NCBI RefSeq assembly: GCF_003018255.1
Contig: NZ_CP027440.1
Strand: one strand, 5' to 3'
From: Escherichia coli
GTDB taxonomy: Bacteria > Pseudomonadota > Gammaproteobacteria > Enterobacterales > Enterobacteriaceae
DNA: 64,000 nucleotides
Numbering within the stretch: the first letter of the stretch is position 1; the number at the start of each line of letters is the position of its first letter. The translations under genes and the position numbers were made by a program. Under the pieces are notes generated by a model that was given only the letters and a program-made list of their open reading frames with translations, had not been told where the DNA came from and made no database searches. Below are positions 49,247 to 60,248 of the stretch, in pieces.

Positions 49247-50284
49247 ATGTTTTCCGCATTGCGCCACCGTACCGCTGCCCTGGCGCTCGGCGTATGCTTT
49301 ATCCTCCCCGTACACGCCTCGTCACCTAAACCTGGCGATTTTGCTAATACCCAGGCACGACATATTGCTACTTTCTTTCCGGGACGCATGACCGGAACTC
49401 CTGCAGAAATGTTATCTGCCGATTATATTCGCCAACAGTTTCAGCAAATGGGTTATCGCAGTGATATTCGGACATTTAATAGTCGGTATATTTATACCGC
49501 CCGCGATAATCGCAAGAGCTGGCATAACGTGACGGGAAGTACGGTGATTGCCGCTCATGAAGGCAAAGCTCCGCAGCAGATCATCATTATGGCGCATCTG
49601 GATACTTACGCTCCGCTGAGCGATGCTGACGCCGATGCCAATCTCGGCGGGCTGACGTTACAAGGAATAGATGATAACGCCGCAGGTTTAGGTGTCATGC
49701 TGGAACTGGCAGAACGCCTGAAAAATACGCCTACCGAGTATGGTATTCGATTTGTGGCGACCAGTGGTGAAGAGGAAGGGAAATTAGGTGCTGAGAATTT
49801 ACTCAAGCGGATGAGTGACACCGAAAAGAAAAATACGCTGCTGGTGATTAATCTCGATAACTTAATTGTTGGCGATAAATTGTATTTCAATAGTGGTGTA
49901 AAAACCCCTGAAGCAGTAAGGAAATTAACGCGCGACAGGGCGCTGGCAATTGCGCGTAGTCATGGAATTGCCGCAACGACCAATCCGGGTTTGAATAAAA
50001 ATTATCCGAAAGGCACTGGGTGTTGTAATGACGCAGAAATATTCGACAAAGCCGGTATTGCTGTACTTTCGGTGGAAGCGACTAACTGGAATCTTGGGAA
50101 TAAGGATGGTTATCAGCAACGCGCAAAAACAGCCGCATTCCCTGCGGGAAATAGCTGGCATGACGTAAGACTGGATAATCAACAACATATTGATAAGGCG
50201 CTTCCTGGAAGAATAGAACGTCGCTGCCGTGATGTTATGCGGATAATGCTACCTCTGGTGAAGGAGTTGGCGAAGGCGTCTTGA
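49247..50284 (+). CDS. iap: Alkaline phosphatase isozyme conversion aminopeptidase (M28 family)
   Basis: ORF track 345 aa; signal peptide, M28 peptidase motifs; located immediately upstream of the CRISPR array as in the classic iap locus. Confidence 0.94.
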   Translation: MFSALRHRTAALALGVCFILPVHASSPKPGDFANTQARHIATFFPGRMTGTPAEMLSADYIRQQFQQMGYRSDIRTFNSRYIYTARDNRKSWHNVTGSTVIAAHEGKAPQQIIIMAHLDTYAPLSDADADANLGGLTLQGIDDNAAGLGVMLELAERLKNTPTEYGIRFVATSGEEEGKLGAENLLKRMSDTEKKNTLLVINLDNLIVGDKLYFNSGVKTPEAVRKLTRDRALAIARSHGIAATTNPGLNKNYPKGTGCCNDAEIFDKAGIAVLSVEATNWNLGNKDGYQQRAKTAAFPAGNSWHDVRLDNQQHIDKALPGRIERRCRDVMRIMLPLVKELAKAS

Positions 50285-50365: not shown

Positions 50366-51188
50366 CGGTTTATCCCCGCTGACGCGGGGAACACACATGA
50401 ATGTCGGTTCAGACCGTGTTTTTACCCGGTTTATCCCCGCTGGCGCGGGGAACACGAGGCTGAACAGGGAGGGGGCTACCGGCACAGCGGTTTATCCCCG
50501 CTGGCGCGGGGAACACTTGCCAACCGCCAAAGACTGGAAAACCAATCTCGGTTTATCCCCGCTGGCGCGGGGAACACTTAAACTTGCCGCCGGTATGGGG
50601 GGAACGGGCCGGTTTATCCCCGCTGGCGCGGGGAACTCGTTTCGCGTCGATCGCCTTTTGCGCAATCGCGCCGGTTTATCCCCGCTGGCGCGGGGAACTC
50701 TTTCTTTTTCCATTTAAGTTATTCTAATACCCCGGTTTATCCCCGCTGGCGCGGGGAACTCGATCATGCCTTACTAAAAGGTCCGCTGACGGGCGGTTTA
50801 TCCCCGCTGGCGCGGGGAACTCATCATGACAAAAAGTTACGCTCATCTATTCAACGGTTTATCCCCGCTGGCGCGGGGAACTCTCCATATGTTGCCCCGC
50901 TCGGGACAACACCCCCGGTTTATCCCCGCTGGCGCGGGGAACTCTTAGCGCCGACAAAAGAAGTTGCGGATAACAGCGGTTTATCCCCGCTGGCGCGGGG
51001 AACTCGCCCGTTCCCAGGGAGTGCGGCTCCACCCCCGCGGTTTATCCCCGCTGACGCGGGGAACTCTTCAGTTTCACACTCGGTAATGCCGTTATTTACG
51101 GTTTATCCCCGCTGGCGCGGGGAACTCCTCGGGGCCAGCCTCCCCCATTAACCCGGCACCGGTTTATCCCCGCTGGCGCGGGGAACTC
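50366..51188 (-). CRISPR. Type I-E CRISPR array, 14 direct repeats of 29 bp (plus-strand form CGGTTTATCCCCGCTGGCGCGGGGAACTC) separated by 13 spacers of 32-33 bp; transcribed on the minus strand from the leader at 51189-51293
   Basis: Repeats located by eye at 50366, 50427, 50488, 50549, 50610, 50672, 50733, 50794, 50855, 50916, 50977, 51038, 51099, 51160 (61-62 bp period); repeat is reverse complement of the I-E repeat GAGTTCCCCGCGCCAGCGGGGATAAACCG; adjacent cas2-cas1. Confidence 0.97.
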
Positions 51189-51293
51189 TCTAAAAGTATA
51201 CATTTGTTCTTAAAGCATTTTTTCCCATAAAAACAACCCACCAACCTTAATGTAACATTTCCTTATTATTAAAGATCAGCTAATTCTTTGTTT
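51189..51293 (-). promoter_or_regulatory. CRISPR leader (AT-rich) between last repeat and cas2 stop
   Basis: About 105 bp AT-rich sequence (..AAAGTATACATTTGTTCTTAAAGCATTTTTTCCCATAAAAACAACC..) directly abutting repeat 14, located at the cas2-proximal end. Confidence 0.85.
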
Positions 51294-52497
<1,204 letters not shown>

Positions 52498-52512
52498 TTT
52501 ATTACACCTCAA

Positions 52513-53112
52513 TCACAGTGGAGCCAAAGATAGCAAGCCACATCCCATCGATTTAGCTGGCCCAATACCTTGCTGTACAAGATCTATTAACGCTGGCGCG
52601 TCGTTGATGGTGATCACCCCTTCAAAGCAAACCGTTTGGATCTTTCCACTTTTACCATCACCAGAAAAATACTGTGGCCGTTCCGATATGGGATGCACAT
52701 CTTCAACGCGCGCCGCATTGCCCAATTTACGTTGCAACCACGCGATTTGTTCTGCTTCTTTTATTAACGGAACCCGACAGCGTTTAATATTCCCTTTACT
52801 GTCCAGGCGCTTTTGATTGTCGAGAATAGTTTTGATCGGATTTGCCCGAAGCCGAAAATAGAGTGGAACACCAACCTGAAGTTGAAATTCAACCTGTTTA
52901 GTTTTAATGACTGTCGCAACGGCAGTAGAAACAGGCATTTGCGCTGACTGCAATAAAACATGACAGCCTTCTGGTGTGTTTCGCTTCTCAACATGAAAAA
53001 GAAAATCACGAGCAGCATCCGGTCTGTTTGGAAATAAATGCCATAATCCCTGGTGAAGTTGGTAAAGATCCCTGCTCCAGGCCCTGGCAATGATGACTTT
53101 ACTGAGATACAT
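52513..53112 (-). CDS. cas6e: Cas6e (CasE) crRNA endoribonuclease
   Basis: ORF track 199 aa (MYLSKVIIARAWSRDLYQLH...). Confidence 0.95.
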   Translation of the reverse strand: MYLSKVIIARAWSRDLYQLHQGLWHLFPNRPDAARDFLFHVEKRNTPEGCHVLLQSAQMPVSTAVATVIKTKQVEFQLQVGVPLYFRLRANPIKTILDNQKRLDSKGNIKRCRVPLIKEAEQIAWLQRKLGNAARVEDVHPISERPQYFSGDGKSGKIQTVCFEGVITINDAPALIDLVQQGIGPAKSMGCGLLSLAPL

Positions 53113-53773
53113 CCATACCTCCTTTAATCACATACCATTCTCGGGAAGCAAATTGTCGAGGTAAGGTGATCATCGGTTCGTCGCGCACCGTAAATTTTAA
53201 ATGATGCCCGTCAACTGATTCCTCACTATAAATATCGCCGCCAACGGGCTCATAATTTAATAGCGCCTTCTGAGGATCCGACGCCTGACATGTCCCGAGA
53301 AAAAGCGGTTGTGTTAGCGGACAACTCCTCCGCCCCAGATACGGTGTATACCGAGGCTTTAATACTGCTTTTTCAAGTTCTGACATAACCATCGTTGCCT
53401 GTGGTGTTAACCAGATAGCGACGGTAAAGGAGGCATCACATAAATATTCGCGCCATGTTTGAATCGTTTCATGACTTTTCAAACCACGGTAATCTTCTCG
53501 CGCTCCAAGGACTGTATGGTAATCACGCAACCCCGTTACAGACACACGACGATCGTCAAGAATGAGTTCATCGCAGCGCACTGCAAATTGCACACTCTCT
53601 GATAACGCCTGTAATGAAGAAGTATCATCACGTTGGATCCCAAGACAAGCCCCGAGTAGCCCTAATAACCCGCTTCGGGTCGGAAATCTTCCGGTAGGTC
53701 GCGTTCCTTCAAAGGTCGGCTGCCCCCAGGCTTGCATTGGCCCAGCAAGCCGCAAGATCAAATAAGATCTCAT
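53099..53773 (-). CDS. cas5: Cas5e (CasD) Cascade subunit
   Basis: ORF track frame 226 aa; start placed at MRSYLILRLAGPMQAWG (224 aa). Confidence 0.94.
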   Translation of the reverse strand: MRSYLILRLAGPMQAWGQPTFEGTRPTGRFPTRSGLLGLLGACLGIQRDDTSSLQALSESVQFAVRCDELILDDRRVSVTGLRDYHTVLGAREDYRGLKSHETIQTWREYLCDASFTVAIWLTPQATMVMSELEKAVLKPRYTPYLGRRSCPLTQPLFLGTCQASDPQKALLNYEPVGGDIYSEESVDGHHLKFTVRDEPMITLPRQFASREWYVIKGGMDVSQ

Positions 53774-53775
53774 GT

Positions 53776-54867
53776 TCACGCCTCGCCATTATTACGAACC
53801 CAGGATTTTAACTGTTCTAAAGTAGGCATTTGTTTAACTTGAGCAGTAATTGGGTCTACATCAGATAAGCTGAATTGCGCAGCAGCTCCGTTCAGACCAT
53901 ATCCATTGGCAACGCGATCCCAATATTGATTAAACGCCTGTATAGACGGTTGCAAAAAGCCATCTTTCGCTTTAACCGCTTTTTCAAAAGCATTTGCCAT
54001 AGAAAGTGGCATATCGGAGAAATTAACCATTACCATATCCGCAGGGTTAAAAGCGGCATAAGTACGCTGTTTTGCTCCAGGGACCTCTGTTGCCAGCATA
54101 TGAACAACATGGGTTGCAATTTCCAGAGCCTGCTCCCTGGAGGCACCACCTAAATTTTCCTGAAGTTGAGCGAGGTTAATGTTGGCATAACGATAAAAAA
54201 CACCCGATGAAAATTCCTGAGTTCCCAGATGTGCAGAACCTTGTTCCTGTAAATCATCTACAGCGGTGAACCAGTCAATATCAGAATCAACCTGATGAGT
54301 AGTGATCGCATGCGCAATGGACATTGCACCATCAACTTTTCCCAACTCACTCATCATGCCGCTGGTTGCCATTCTTCCACTAAGCGCAATATCAACACCC
54401 TGCTGTAAATTCACACGTATGGCGGCAATATCTTCCTTAAGAACTTTGAGCAGCTTTTTATCATCCAGATTATCAGCCTCTGCTTTTGCAACCTGCTCAC
54501 AGAACCAGGCTATTTCTCCCACAACCCAGGGAGTAACCGCATCGGCAGAAATCTTTTCGGCTTCATCAACTAATTTACCGGAGAGCAGCGCTAATGTCTT
54601 ATCGATGATTTTTTGGTCAAAACGTTCACCAAGTTTTTGCCGAAGAACATCACGTAATTGTGCAAGATGAATTGTTCTGAGACTGGATTCACCAATATTT
54701 TGTGCGTAATAATCACTTTTACGCATCGCATGTTTAAGGCTTTGACTTGAAATTCTTACTCGTCTTTTCCCGCCGAAAATAGCGTCTTTCTGCATGTTCA
54801 TATCGTCGCGGTTCAGACATGAAGGGCTGTGAGAGATCAGAACATGAATATTGATAAAGTTAGACAT
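53776..54867 (-). CDS. cas7: Cas7e (CasC) Cascade backbone subunit
   Basis: ORF track 363 aa ([22 protein letters not shown]...). Confidence 0.95.
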
Positions 54868-54879
54868 AGAAAGGTTTCC

Positions 54880-55362
54880 TTACGCATTTTTGTTTGTGGT
54901 CAATACAAAATCTTCCAGAAGTTGCTGGCGTTCGCGCTTTCCCCACCAGGTCAACATCCTGGCCATTAATGGCCAGTCAAGTACGGGTTCGGCGTGAGTA
55001 AGTAATCGACGTAACTGGACCATATCGGCTGTTCTGTCAGCCCGAATTAATTGAAAGATACGGCGCTCGTTAATTCTTCCACTATTGGCTAAAGCTCTTC
55101 CCAACGAGATACCTGTTGTTTGCTCCGTTTTTTTGTCCTGATGTCGGATGACATTCTTTCCTGCGCTCAGGCAAAACACCATGCGCAAAAGAGCCTGCTG
55201 GTGACGTGGGTTTTCCCAACCAAAAGATTGCACCAGCCTATAAAACGCAGGGATATCGCGTAATTCATCAGGTTCTGAAACACGTCTAATTTGCGCACAT
55301 GCTCCATTATCCAGTTGTTGCCAGGCTCGATATAAAGCCATTGCATCAATTTCATCAGCCAT
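54880..55362 (-). CDS. cse2: Cse2 (CasB) Cascade small subunit
   Basis: ORF track 160 aa. Confidence 0.94.
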   Translation of the reverse strand: MADEIDAMALYRAWQQLDNGACAQIRRVSEPDELRDIPAFYRLVQSFGWENPRHQQALLRMVFCLSAGKNVIRHQDKKTEQTTGISLGRALANSGRINERRIFQLIRADRTADMVQLRRLLTHAEPVLDWPLMARMLTWWGKRERQQLLEDFVLTTNKNA

Positions 55363-56863
55363 TTGATGGCCCTCCTTGAGGTTTTAACTCCCGTAAATGT
55401 TTGTATAGCGTGGCGCGGGCAAGCGCTAATGTGCTTATTAATTTAGGATGATGTGCATAGGGAGCTACAGATTGATTAAATAGCATTTCACACAATTGAT
55501 GAAGTTTGTCTCGTAAATCAGCTATTACCTCATCAGCTTGGGAAAAATTAATATTCGCCAATACATCGGGAATTAATAATTCACTCTGTCGATAGAAATG
55601 CCTTTCTGCAGTCTCATGAACAGAAACTCCGGCCCCTTTGAAGTCTTTATTTTTAAACCCTTCTGCAAAGGTATATAACGCCTTGCGTAAGGCTGTTTTA
55701 TATCCCAAACCAACAGTCACTATTTCGTTTATCACATTGCCGTATTGTTGCCACCCCTGATTAAACATCAACACATCATGACGCCGTTCAAGAATAGATG
55801 CTTGATTATTACGATATCCCCCCATAATCAATTCAAGAGGACTTTGCGGCGCAATATTTCTGAATTGATTCACAACCGCCGCCACGCGATTTCCATTTTC
55901 ATTTTGAATAATCTTATCTACCACAACTCGGCTGATTTGTGTCCATGATGGTGCGGAGGTGGTGAAAGCAAGAAATTTTTCCTCAACCTCCCCTTTCTTG
56001 ACTGTTACCAGACAAGGGGAATGCGGATGGGGCCATAGCCCATTAACTGTAAAGGTAAATTTTTCCTTAAGAAAACCGGTATAACGCAAATTGCTTTCCT
56101 GACCACAGCAAGAACATTTACCAATCCCAATGGGATCGCATAGTTCAATATGCGCTGGTTGCCAGAATAAACCACGGACAAACCCAATTGAAGAAGCAGG
56201 CACCGATTCATTCGGCTTGACAGGCTTAACCCAGGTAGGTTGGTTTTCCGTATGTAATTCATTGGGAAATTGTTTTTGAAGACGAGGTATTGTGAGGACA
56301 TTGAGTAATACCGTCGAGCGAAGATCGATCCCACATACGAAGGTGGTTATAGGTGTTCCTCCACGTAAACCGCTTTTAAAGCCACCACCAAAACCAGGTG
56401 CCTGATTCGCCTGGTTGAATAACGCAATCGCAGTGCATCCACCACATAATGCTTCACCCTGCCCCGGTTGATTGACAAATGCACAATTCGTCGCGCCGCT
56501 TACCCCAGCCAACAGTTTTTCCATTGGAGTCACATCATTTGCTTTGACACCTTTGGTCTGCATAAAGGGATGTTCTGCGTGATTAAGGTAGAACATATCT
56601 ATCCACGGCGCGATGAGTTGTTGAAACTCATCTTCAGTGAGCGGATTCATTATGCGATGTCGAAATTCAACGTCATCTTTTGCCGGGGCGATAATTTGCC
56701 CAATGCAAACCAGCAGTGCTAAAGTGGCCAGTTCCATATCGTCACGGGGCAAACTTAATCGCCACTGATCTCTACTGCAGTATAGCGATTGCAGATTTAT
56801 GATTTGGACTTTCCCCCCGTTTCGCGGGCGTACAGGGATCCAGTTATCAATAAGCAAATTCAT
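55355..56863 (-). CDS. cse1: Cse1 (CasA) Cascade large subunit
   Basis: ORF track 502 aa (MNLLIDNWIPVRPRNGG...). Confidence 0.95.
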   Translation of the reverse strand: MNLLIDNWIPVRPRNGGKVQIINLQSLYCSRDQWRLSLPRDDMELATLALLVCIGQIIAPAKDDVEFRHRIMNPLTEDEFQQLIAPWIDMFYLNHAEHPFMQTKGVKANDVTPMEKLLAGVSGATNCAFVNQPGQGEALCGGCTAIALFNQANQAPGFGGGFKSGLRGGTPITTFVCGIDLRSTVLLNVLTIPRLQKQFPNELHTENQPTWVKPVKPNESVPASSIGFVRGLFWQPAHIELCDPIGIGKCSCCGQESNLRYTGFLKEKFTFTVNGLWPHPHSPCLVTVKKGEVEEKFLAFTTSAPSWTQISRVVVDKIIQNENGNRVAAVVNQFRNIAPQSPLELIMGGYRNNQASILERRHDVLMFNQGWQQYGNVINEIVTVGLGYKTALRKALYTFAEGFKNKDFKGAGVSVHETAERHFYRQSELLIPDVLANINFSQADEVIADLRDKLHQLCEMLFNQSVAPYAHHPKLISTLALARATLYKHLRELKPQGGPSNG

Positions 56864-57277
56864 TTGTTCTCCTTCATATGCTCCGACATTTCTCCTGCAT
56901 TTCTATGCGTCGGCACACTTCCGTTATCGGTAAAAACAAAGAAAAAATACGGCGTAATTAATTCAATAATCACATTCACTGCAAAAATATATTCATTGGT
57001 TTAATACAATTAACCTATACATATATTAAGATGTGTTGAATTGTTTAAAGACAATAATGCATGCATTTCAAATCTGCAAGTTATTCGTTTTATTATCAAA
57101 GAAATTTTTAGTTATAATAATTACCATAAATTTTATTACATAAAATATTCATACTGTGAATATAAAATCTCATACCGGGAAATTAAAAGAAGATGTACAT
57201 TGTGCACTTTCCCTACTTAAGTAGGGATAAACCGTTATTGGTCTTGTTATCGTCATTGATACCAATCATTCCCGAAG
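56864..57277 (-). promoter_or_regulatory. AT-rich cas3-cse1 intergenic region expected to carry the Cascade operon promoter (Pcas) and H-NS/LeuO control sites
   Basis: 414 bp strongly AT-rich non-coding stretch directly upstream of cse1; regulatory assignment is from established E. coli knowledge, exact promoter positions not determined here. Confidence 0.6.
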
Positions 57278-59944
57278 TTATTTGGGATTTGCAGGGATGA
57301 CTCTGGTCATCCCTTCATCCCGAGTGTAGGTAATAACAATATTATTACCCTGCCAGATCCATCCATCCTGATTCTGTTTCCCTTCCAGCCAAAGTAACCC
57401 ATCTTCATCTACTACTTCAGAAAAATTACGTTTCCAGGTGAAGGGTACATTGACGCGATTAAGTGCTAACGCCTCATACTGCTGTTCATGACTTAGGTCC
57501 TCGTAGACCTGGCCATCGAGCAGTTGTTTACCTGAAGACGTTTGTAAATAAGGCAATAATGGCAGGCTCATTTCCCCATCCCTCGTTACCGCAAGAATTG
57601 TTTCATCGTTATCCTGCAAGCTATATTCTTCAGCCCACTGCAGAACCTTGCGAGCCTTGAACCTCTTTTCACACTCAGCGCTTTCAAACTTATCCATGCC
57701 TTTGATGACCCATTCTGGCTCATCCATTTCAGCATCATCGTAAATGCTATCCAGCCATTGCCGGTAGGCATCGGGGAAAAATAAGGATGCTCCATTAAGT
57801 TCCTCAATATGTTGCTGCGTCCGCCACATGACTCTAACGTTGCTATAAATATGCTCATGTCGTCCGTAACCTTCGCCATCAGGCAGCAAAACGGTGGCAA
57901 GAGGAACCTCAAAACCAGCGGGACGATATTTGCGATGATGGCGATGTAAACGGCCCAATCGTTGGAAAAGTAAATCTGCGGGGCAATGCTGAGTAATTAA
58001 CCAATCAAAATCAACGTCGAGTGATTGTTCCACGACCTGGGTGGCGACAAGTATCCGTCCAACATTTCGCTTCCCATTTTTGCCGAAATTGCTAATAACT
58101 CGATTCTCTTTTTCACGACGATCGTTCAGCGTAAAGCGCGCATGAAACAAATCTATATCTACTTGCGTGTTATTTAGTTCCTTTAACCGTTGGTGGCATA
58201 GCTGTGCAACATCAACCAAATTGCAGATAAGACAGACTTGTGCACCCGCATTTGCCGCTACGATCATTCGCTCTAACATCCTAAGGTCAGGTAACATGTC
58301 AGCTAAATAAATAGGTTCTGGCCGAATCGAAAAGCGGGGCGGGAGTTGTTCTGAATGAGCTAACAGATCAAAACGTTGTGCACCATTCACACCTCGCCAG
58401 TTAATGAGTGGATATGCGGAGTTATTTTCCTCTGGATCTGTATGCAGACCATAAGTATCCAGAAGTTTCTGTTTTTGTTTCATTGGTAGAGTTGCGGAAA
58501 GAAGAATAACACTCCCCCCCACATCAGCCTGAGCCTTGAGCACAGCCTCCAGCAAGCCGTTCATATACGTGTCGTAAGCATGAACTTCATCAACAATTAA
58601 AACACTTCGACCAATTCCCAAACCACGGATAAAGCGGTGTTTAACTGGCAATACCGATATCAACACCTGATCAATCGTGCAAACGCCGATTTGCCCAAGA
58701 AACACTTTCTTATTGCTTTGTGACAACCACTGACAACACTGAACCCATGCTTCTTCTTGCCCCTGCTCAGTAAATGCGCGTGATTTTATTGATTGAAAAA
58801 GGTGGTTAAAACGTGAATTACCATGAGCAAGAATAAGATTTGGGGAGGTAAATAAACGGCTCGCGTTCGCTTCCATTCTGCTGAGCATTGCATTTGCAGT
58901 AGCTTGTGTAGGGAGGGCAAAAATAACACTATCCGCAAGTTGTTGGTCAATAAGTTTCCAGGCATAGGCCAGCGCAGTTTCAGTTTTACCTGAACCCGTA
59001 GGTGCCTCTATTACCGTCAGCCCGGGCGCTACTGGAAGAGCATCAACTAACACTTGTAATTGTCTGGGTTGATAGCCATTGTCCAGTAGAGCATGAACAC
59101 CTTCATAACATCGCTTATTTGATACAAGGCCGCTCAACTCCAATACCCGGCTCGCATCCTGCTGTCGGTCCTGGAAATACGTTCTTAGAGCATTTATGTT
59201 GGAAGGTGCATCCTCTTTAAACAGAAAGGTATTCGTTGTAGTCCAGGAGCCTAACCAGTCAGCAAGCGAGCAAAAACCTGCTAACAGTGATGAACAATCA
59301 GGTGGTATATCGTTTATAGATAACCCGGCTGGCGTTAAAAATAATGCTTCGAGTACAGATATCCACTCCTCACGAGCCTGTTTATCTTGCGCAGCATAAG
59401 ATGCCAGAGAAGCTGGCATTTCCCAACGCGACTTATCTTGATCCTGGGAATGTAATATAAAACCATGATGTCCTGTAACAGCCTCTACCCATGGAAACCA
59501 GGACTCATAAGGATGAGGAGCGGCATCAAAAAAACTGAAAAAATCCCCGGGAGATTGCTCTGAAAGTGAATCCTGGTTAAACCAATACAGACCGGCTGCA
59601 CCATGATTAAATTTACGGCACATTTGTGTTGATGGACCATTAAGTGATGGCGTTGCAGGATTTAATTTCAGCCAACTTTCTGCTGATTTATATTGGAATC
59701 GTATATCAAACTTTCCGATATCATGAAGGGCAATGAAAAATAACAGCCAGGCTTTCACCTTCTGTTTTGATAGCATTTCATTTCGGCAAAAAGCATTTTG
59801 TAGTACGACTGATTGATCCCACCAGCAATCTGCAACAGCTGCAACATCCAGGCAATGATAAATCAACAGATGAATATCATTTCCTTTCGTCAGGCTTTTT
59901 GAGGATTTCCCCCAGTAATGACATATATATTTAAAAGGTTCCAT
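57278..59944 (-). CDS. cas3: Cas3 HD-nuclease/helicase (type I-E)
   Basis: ORF track 888 aa; HD motif (ALHDIGKFD), Walker A EAPTGSGKTE, DEVH box (LIVDEVHAYD); SD GGGAGG 7 nt upstream of ATG. Confidence 0.96.
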   Translation of the reverse strand: MEPFKYICHYWGKSSKSLTKGNDIHLLIYHCLDVAAVADCWWDQSVVLQNAFCRNEMLSKQKVKAWLLFFIALHDIGKFDIRFQYKSAESWLKLNPATPSLNGPSTQMCRKFNHGAAGLYWFNQDSLSEQSPGDFFSFFDAAPHPYESWFPWVEAVTGHHGFILHSQDQDKSRWEMPASLASYAAQDKQAREEWISVLEALFLTPAGLSINDIPPDCSSLLAGFCSLADWLGSWTTTNTFLFKEDAPSNINALRTYFQDRQQDASRVLELSGLVSNKRCYEGVHALLDNGYQPRQLQVLVDALPVAPGLTVIEAPTGSGKTETALAYAWKLIDQQLADSVIFALPTQATANAMLSRMEANASRLFTSPNLILAHGNSRFNHLFQSIKSRAFTEQGQEEAWVQCCQWLSQSNKKVFLGQIGVCTIDQVLISVLPVKHRFIRGLGIGRSVLIVDEVHAYDTYMNGLLEAVLKAQADVGGSVILLSATLPMKQKQKLLDTYGLHTDPEENNSAYPLINWRGVNGAQRFDLLAHSEQLPPRFSIRPEPIYLADMLPDLRMLERMIVAANAGAQVCLICNLVDVAQLCHQRLKELNNTQVDIDLFHARFTLNDRREKENRVISNFGKNGKRNVGRILVATQVVEQSLDVDFDWLITQHCPADLLFQRLGRLHRHHRKYRPAGFEVPLATVLLPDGEGYGRHEHIYSNVRVMWRTQQHIEELNGASLFFPDAYRQWLDSIYDDAEMDEPEWVIKGMDKFESAECEKRFKARKVLQWAEEYSLQDNDETILAVTRDGEMSLPLLPYLQTSSGKQLLDGQVYEDLSHEQQYEALALNRVNVPFTWKRNFSEVVDEDGLLWLEGKQNQDGWIWQGNNIVITYTRDEGMTRVIPANPK

Positions 59945-60248
59945 TAATAGCCTCCCTGTTTTTTTAGTATTATCGATGATATCAGTGGACTATTTTTCGA
60001 TGCTGCTCATAAATATCGAATTACAGTGATATACACATGTCTTGCCTCCCTGCAAAGAAGAGACTAACATTCGAATTGCTTAGGTTCGAACGCAGGCCTC
60101 AGGTTGATAGAAATATCGCCTGGGGCTTTTGTCCATCTGGAACCTCGCGAATGCTTAACGCCAGACAGCCTCAAGCACCCAACTCCATTCTATACCTGTT
60201 AATTCTCCCTGCGATGTTCACCTTTAAATGCCGGAATGCTGCTCGCAA

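Follow-up and report, generated by a model that had tools for sequence, protein, structure and literature searches.

A type I-E CRISPR array at the iap-cas2 locus of Escherichia coli and the sources of some of its thirteen spacers

The window, by which we mean the whole 64,000-nt stretch of Escherichia coli DNA that was analysed (contig NZ_CP027440.1), carries a type I-E CRISPR-Cas locus between iap and cysH. Its features, in plus-strand coordinates, are:

49247-50284, plus strand: iap, with cysD, cysN and cysC farther out on this side
50366-51188, minus strand: type I-E CRISPR array (the iap-cas2 array, also called "CRISPR 2.1" or CRISPR-I), 14 repeats and 13 spacers
51189-51293, minus strand: AT-rich leader, the 105 nt between cas2 and the first repeat, 105/105 identical to the leader of K-12 MG1655
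51294-59944, minus strand: complete type I-E cas operon, in the order cas2, cas1, casE, casD, casC, casB, casA, an intergenic gap and cas3
57278-59944, minus strand: cas3

The cysH, cysI and cysJ genes lie beyond cas3, on the cas-operon side of the array, and in related genomes a feature annotated as "CRISPR" occupies the position that corresponds to the array. The eight Cas proteins are all of full length, and each passes the curated NCBIfam equivalog cut-off for type I-E. The same arrangement, in which cysDNC and cysHIJ lie to either side, surrounds CRISPR-I (iap-cas2) of E. coli K-12 MG1655, where cas7 to cas2 are 98.2% identical at the nucleotide level and the array has the same 29-nt repeat and 61-nt periodicity. 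A crRNA-sense consensus pattern, searched with at most 5 mismatches, picks out the K-12 repeats, and the repeat seen here is its reverse complement. Judged by its sequence, the locus is a K-12-type type I-E system with its array in the canonical position. The first-pass annotation would have been refuted had all of its spacers been identical to those of a well-characterised reference array. None is shared with K-12, and the exact array occurs in 0 of 5,426 complete E. coli genomes.

On the plus strand, the 29-nt repeats have the consensus CGGTTTATCCCCGCTGGCGCGGGGAACTC (reverse-complemented with respect to the crRNA sense) and start at 50366, 50427, 50488, 50549, 50610, 50672, 50733, 50794, 50855, 50916, 50977, 51038, 51099 and 51160. 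The periodicity is 61 nt, once 62 nt, and the spacers are all unique. This regularity, together with the near-identity of the repeats, far exceeds chance; Rfam, run at gathering thresholds, reported no CRISPR family in the array. The first-pass annotation had listed thirteen spacers, from 50395-50426 (S1) to 51128-51159 (S13), and these coordinates are exact, as are the sequences that it cited for S6 and S13. Twelve of the thirteen are 32 nt long and S5 (50639-50671) is 33 nt, as had been remarked; set beside K-12, whose own array has two 33-nt spacers to the one found here, this length is unremarkable. The four leader-distal repeats (within 50366-50577) have AACAC as their plus-strand ending, which reads GTGTT... 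in crRNA orientation where K-12 has GAGTT..., and the ending is AACTC in the ten leader-proximal ones. In repeats 1 and 12 (the latter at 51038-51066) a G of the stem is replaced by A (CTGACG). Because the AT-rich leader and the cas operon lie on the side of 51189 and beyond, S13 is leader-proximal, in agreement with the first reading of the array, and S1 is leader-distal.

We searched for protospacers by comparing the concatenated spacers with 50,697 phage records, 72,556 plasmids and the 5,426 complete E. coli genomes by blastn (word size 11, E ≤ 10). Each match was then realigned in crRNA orientation along the whole spacer, and the three bases that precede the protospacer on its 5' side were read as the PAM. 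Whether any spacer would hit anything outside CRISPR arrays had been left open at the outset. S1, S8, S12 and S13 match mobile elements over at least 30 of 32 positions, S10 and S3 probably have targets as well, and all of these matches lie in phage, prophage or plasmid genes. The spacers and their best-supported targets are:

50395-50426, minus strand: S1, the oldest, leader-distal spacer; lxr/upf94.2 gene of P7/pO111_2-type phage-plasmids, 32/32, PAM CTG
50456-50487, minus strand: S2, an anchor spacer present in ~1,000 E. coli arrays; no protospacer found
50517-50548, minus strand: S3, an anchor spacer; virB9 of P-type conjugative plasmids, probable diverged target
50578-50609, minus strand: S4; Fels-1 tape-measure gene, 23/32 (21 contiguous), PAM CAT, weak
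50639-50671, minus strand: S5, 33 nt; no credible protospacer
50701-50732, minus strand: S6, 25% GC; no protospacer found
50762-50793, minus strand: S7; no protospacer found
50823-50854, minus strand: S8, 31% GC; lambdoid prophage immunity/early-region gene, 31/32, PAM GAG
50884-50915, minus strand: S9; no protospacer found
50945-50976, minus strand: S10; prophage terminase large subunit gene, 28/32, PAM AAA, probable diverged target
51006-51037, minus strand: S11, 78% GC; no protospacer found
51067-51098, minus strand: S12, 38% GC; prophage tail-tip protein J gene, 30/32, canonical PAM AAG
51128-51159, minus strand: S13, leader-proximal; encodes the conserved tape-measure motif GAGLMGEAGPE

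Spacers that had been reversed, but not complemented, served as a control. The best of these reached 37 bits (E = 5) in phages, versus 41-60 bits for the real matches, and against the 5,426 E. coli genomes they gave no match at all, versus 45-56 bits for the real spacers. Related phage records, more than 100 of them, repeat a single chance 23/25 match of the reversed set. A high record count is thus no evidence in itself, because one chance match multiplies over related phages. In the plasmid search, artefacts that span the junctions of the concatenated query reach 43-44 bits, and matches to an Enterobacter pitrilysin, a Nitratireductor cobyrinate synthase, Borrelia plasmids, chicken microviruses and a Providencia phage were set aside as artefacts of this kind. 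We rate the targets of S1, S8, S12 and S13 as secure, those of S10 and S3 as probable, and that of S4 as doubtful.

The S8 target is in strain STEC384 (NZ_CP091029.1, 2675105-2675136), in a gene annotated as "type I restriction endonuclease", and the single mismatch falls at a third codon position. The S12 target is in JNE151685 (NZ_AP027258.1, 2196850-2196881), and its two mismatches fall within one codon (Thr to Ser). For S13, the best match (30/32, PAM GCG) is in the IMG/VR contig UViG_2823450951_000005. Dhillonvirus phages match S13 at 28/32 (Zar3M) and 27/30 (Envy and relatives) and HK022-like phages at 26/30, with AGG or AAG as the PAM at the site. An IMG/VR scan in which all 21 non-wobble positions of S13 were fixed retrieved more than 120 viral contigs that encode GAGLMGEAGPE, and the PAM at the homologous sites is AAG in 50, AGG in 23, ATG in 14 and GAG in 6, together 93 of 120. 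Searched alone against the E. coli genomes, S13 matched only the arrays of two isolates described below, plus prophages at 26/30. Matches of 21/23 to IS3/ISEc52 elements were rejected (E = 6).

S10 aligns with positions 4952558-4952589 of NZ_CP030768.1. Third-codon-position mismatches are a feature of several alignments, accounting for 4 of 4 in S13 (against Zar3M), 3 of 4 in S10 and the only one in S8. S3 matches virB9 in the Vibrio plasmid pFORC14 (27/32, PAM TTA) and in a Yersinia massiliensis plasmid (26/32, PAM AAC). In each virB9 gene, three mismatches are at third positions and the remainder are in one divergent codon; the peptide PTAKDWKTN, read from the alignment against the CDS frames, is conserved. 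At 46 bits, S3 scores only marginally above the junction artefacts, and because the score is this close to noise the assignment draws mainly on the codon pattern and on recurrence in two separate virB9 genes.

These weaker alignments raise the question of whether, S1 apart, the partial matches (S3, S4, S10 and S13) arose by chance, in which case the sources of the spacers would simply be unknown. E-values of 0.03-1 for S3, S10 and S4, whose matches cover 23-28 of 32 positions, are in keeping with this, as are the 37-44 bits that chance matches attain in the reversed control and across query junctions, and the ease with which one such match is multiplied over 100 related phage records. However, S13, S10 and S3 all fall within hallmark genes of mobile elements, their mismatches concentrate at third codon positions, and the peptides that they encode are conserved. 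The viral contigs that agree with S13 at every non-wobble position, and the empty reversed control against E. coli genomes, also count against chance, which we consider an unlikely explanation of the set as a whole. For S4 taken singly, a match by chance is quite possible.

About half of the spacers are without a known source. For S2, S5, S6, S7, S9 and S11 the phage, plasmid and E. coli databases held nothing credible outside arrays, and exact-pattern scans of IMG/VR gave 0 matches for each; these patterns spanned 27 of 32 nt, with N at every sixth position as the sole variation allowed, and diverged targets could escape them. Scans of JGI metagenomes for S6 and S7 likewise gave 0 matches. 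Several candidates were rejected. A scan of GTDB genomes for S5 found one match, in an ABC-transporter ATPase gene of Rhizobium sp. GN54 (26/33, PAM CCC), which has five consecutive PAM-distal mismatches and was judged to be chance. S5 also matches Rhizobium phage 16-3 and Sinorhizobium phage NV1.1.1 at 27/30 with gaps (E = 5), which is at the level of the reversed control, and 24/26 matches of S2 in Sinorhizobium (E = 4) lie in unannotated megaplasmid DNA. Within S9 is a GC-rich inverted repeat, GTTGCCCCGCTCGGGACAAC, that resembles a terminator stem-loop, so the source of this spacer may be intergenic. The same 10-mer, in opposite orientations (GGGAACGGGC and GCCCGTTCCC), stands at the end of S4 (50600-50609) and at the start of S11 (51006-51015), and a portion of it resembles GGGGAAC of the repeat. 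This may be chance (the estimated expectation is ~0.1), or it may reflect overlapping or related source sites.

Base composition proved a poor guide to origin. The first-pass annotation had pointed to AT-rich spacers as a sign of phage or plasmid ancestry, and S6, S8 and S12 are indeed AT-rich, but the thirteen range from 25 to 78% GC with a mean of ~53%, and the window is at 52.5%. AT-richness is uninformative here, because the mean equals that of the window, spacers traced to a mobile element cover 31-72% GC, and S6, the most AT-rich, is without a target. The expectation of an AWG/AAG-type PAM held in part. S12 has AAG and S8 has GAG, both of which are interference-proficient, but the sole perfect match, that of S1, has CTG in nearly all of its targets. 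CTG and AAA are both listed as non-interfering by Shah et al. 2013 (Table 1, PMC3737346), and in Musharova et al. 2019 (PMC6568314) a plasmid with a CTG PAM was built for priming assays. Position -1 of the PAM is G in 4 of 4 strong matches (S1, S8, S12 and S13), a small sample that agrees with the established view that the PAM supplies the last base of the repeat. Self-targeting had been raised as a possibility, and the check, run within the 64-kb window, returned no match outside the array (best 16/17).

The perfect S1 protospacer occurs in phage P7 (NC_050152.1, 93995-94026), pO111_2 (NC_013370.1, 87237-87268), Salmonella phage SJ46 and altogether ~100 P1-like phage-plasmids. P1 itself matches at 28/32 with PAM ATG, and its four mismatches include seed position 4. 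Among the plasmids with the perfect protospacer, ~97 have the PAM CTG and 3 have ATG (for example pB16EC0268-4, CP088811.1); the latter were found with a 55-nt query bearing ATG in place of CTG. The A-to-C change, at position -3 of the PAM, converts an Arg codon (AGA) to a Ser codon (AGC) in Lxr/Upf94.2. That an ancient spacer of CRISPR 2.1 matches P7 and pO111_2 is already stated by Sheludchenko et al. 2015 (PMC4422515). Like their "ancient spacer 1", S1 is leader-distal and matches both elements at 32/32, and from this shared position and pair of targets, rather than from sequence, we infer that the two are the same spacer. P7 is also among the spacer targets in a 2025 survey (PMC12736100).

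The distribution of S1 target alleles could be taken as CRISPR escape, with the non-interfering CTG in P7 types and ATG plus a seed mismatch in P1 types, S1 having shaped its own target. If true, this would be rare evidence from nature of selection on P1/P7 phage-plasmids by the E. coli I-E system, which is supposed to be silent. P7 and P1 differ at 5 of 35 nt across the S1 protospacer and PAM, which is within the top 11% of windows along the gene and not significant. Nor is the lxr target depleted in genomes with S1 arrays, since ~36-45 have both versus ~34 expected (from summary counts). PAM escape is thus unsupported, because the divergence is unexceptional and co-occurrence is not reduced, and we regard it as very unlikely. 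The CTG versus ATG polymorphism over ~100 P7-like phage-plasmids could nevertheless serve to test whether natural CRISPR immunity selects for escape, and it is the one point of wider interest in this locus. A P7-like plasmid with a perfect S1 target is also carried by strain 88COLEC, in which cas1e is annotated as frameshifted. This strain was rejected as a case in which array and target co-occur, as its array is without S1 and its three leader-distal spacers are shared with K-12, not with the window.

Comparison with other arrays bears on how the spacers were gained and lost. S1, S2 and S3 occur together at the distal end of arrays in ~1,000 of the 5,426 complete E. coli genomes and, on this distribution, are species-wide anchor spacers. 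The closest arrays are those of two Japanese human isolates, JNE112863 (NZ_AP045072.1) and JNE23-011 (NZ_AP045067.1), in which 571 nt to either side of the array are 100% identical to the window. Their spacers run:

JNE112863: S1, S3, X1, S4, S6, S7, S8, S9, S10, Y1-Y5, S11, S12, S13
JNE23-011: S1, S3, X1, S4, S8, S9, S10, S12, S13

These arrays thus share 11 and 8 of the 13 spacers, respectively, in the same order, with S1 at the distal end and S12-S13 next to the leader, and both retain the boundary between AACAC and AACTC repeats. On the chromosomes of the two isolates, the spacers common to them occur in one place per record, the array itself. The window array has S2 and S5, which are absent from both isolates, and is without X1 (between S3 and S4) and Y1-Y5 (between S10 and S11). 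X1 is GAACTGGCGTTGAGTGATAAATTTGACGGAAT, at 723-754 of the extracted array stretches of both isolates, and Y1-Y5 are at 1150-1425 of the JNE112863 stretch. Beyond these isolates, S4 also occurs in the array of strain 18KM2445, and S6, found in JNE112863 as well, is in 8 other E. coli arrays (one base differs over 33 aligned, the spacer plus one flanking base).

The simplest reading fits an ancestor with at least 19 spacers, from which each strain would have lost internal spacers independently. Since the three arrays all end in S12-S13 and differ solely by internal losses, it appears that no spacer has been gained since their common ancestor. None of the 5,426 complete E. coli genomes contains S5; the position of this spacer is internal, which argues that it is an ancestral spacer lost by the JNE lineage and not a new one. 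The description of S13 as the most recent acquisition therefore holds for order but not for time, because S13 is leader-proximal in both isolates as well. That the array is an actively updating memory, with S13 recording a recent siphophage infection of this strain, would suit the intact cas operon and leader, the origin of the leader-adjoining S13 in a phage tape-measure gene and the AAG, AGG, ATG or GAG at most of its homologous sites, but is highly improbable given the identical flanks around the same S13 in the two other isolates, the lack of any leader-end addition among the three arrays, and the finding of no perfect S13 target in the 50,697 phage records, the 5,426 E. coli genomes or, with a stricter scan, IMG/VR.

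We conclude that this is very probably an ordinary E. coli type I-E array, whose spacers are an inherited rather than a recent record and come, where identifiable, from temperate or plasmid-like sources. The mechanism is established in K-12, and the near-identity of the two loci suggests that it would operate similarly here. Transcription would start from the leader and follow the minus strand, CasE would cut the transcript inside each repeat to give 61-nt crRNAs, and Cascade with 32-nt guides would find protospacers adjoining a 5' AAG, ATG, AGG or GAG PAM, with Cas3 degrading the target. Cas1-Cas2 would insert new 33-bp units beside the leader. In the history that we favour, S1-S3 are the species-wide anchors, the other spacers are shared with the two isolates, and the array of this strain differs from theirs by internal loss only. 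The identifiable sources are temperate or plasmid-like enterobacterial elements: a P7/P1-type phage-plasmid for S1, lambdoid or siphovirus prophages for S8, S10, S12 and S13 (an early gene, terminase, tail tip and tape measure), and probably a T4SS gene of a conjugative plasmid for S3.

Present-day protection looks limited on these matches, because a near-perfect target together with an interference-proficient PAM is seen for S8 and S12 only, each in a single prophage, and the S1 target mostly has CTG. In K-12, H-NS silences the CRISPR system. The feature is real but ordinary. It is a well-known locus in a new allelic form, its spacer targets are informative in part, and it has little significance beyond strain typing, for which its spacer content groups the strain with the two Japanese human isolates. 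The array also exemplifies what is known of type I-E arrays in E. coli, with slow turnover, diversification through spacer loss and ancient anchors. Targets mainly in temperate phages and plasmids, and many spacers without a known source, also fit that picture.

One further element lies next to the cas operon. In the intergenic region between cas3 and cysH, at 60024-60180 on the minus strand, is a full-length match to the sok antitoxin RNA (Rfam RF01794), with 104 bits versus a gathering score of 59, which suggests that a hok/sok-type toxin-antitoxin locus adjoins the operon.
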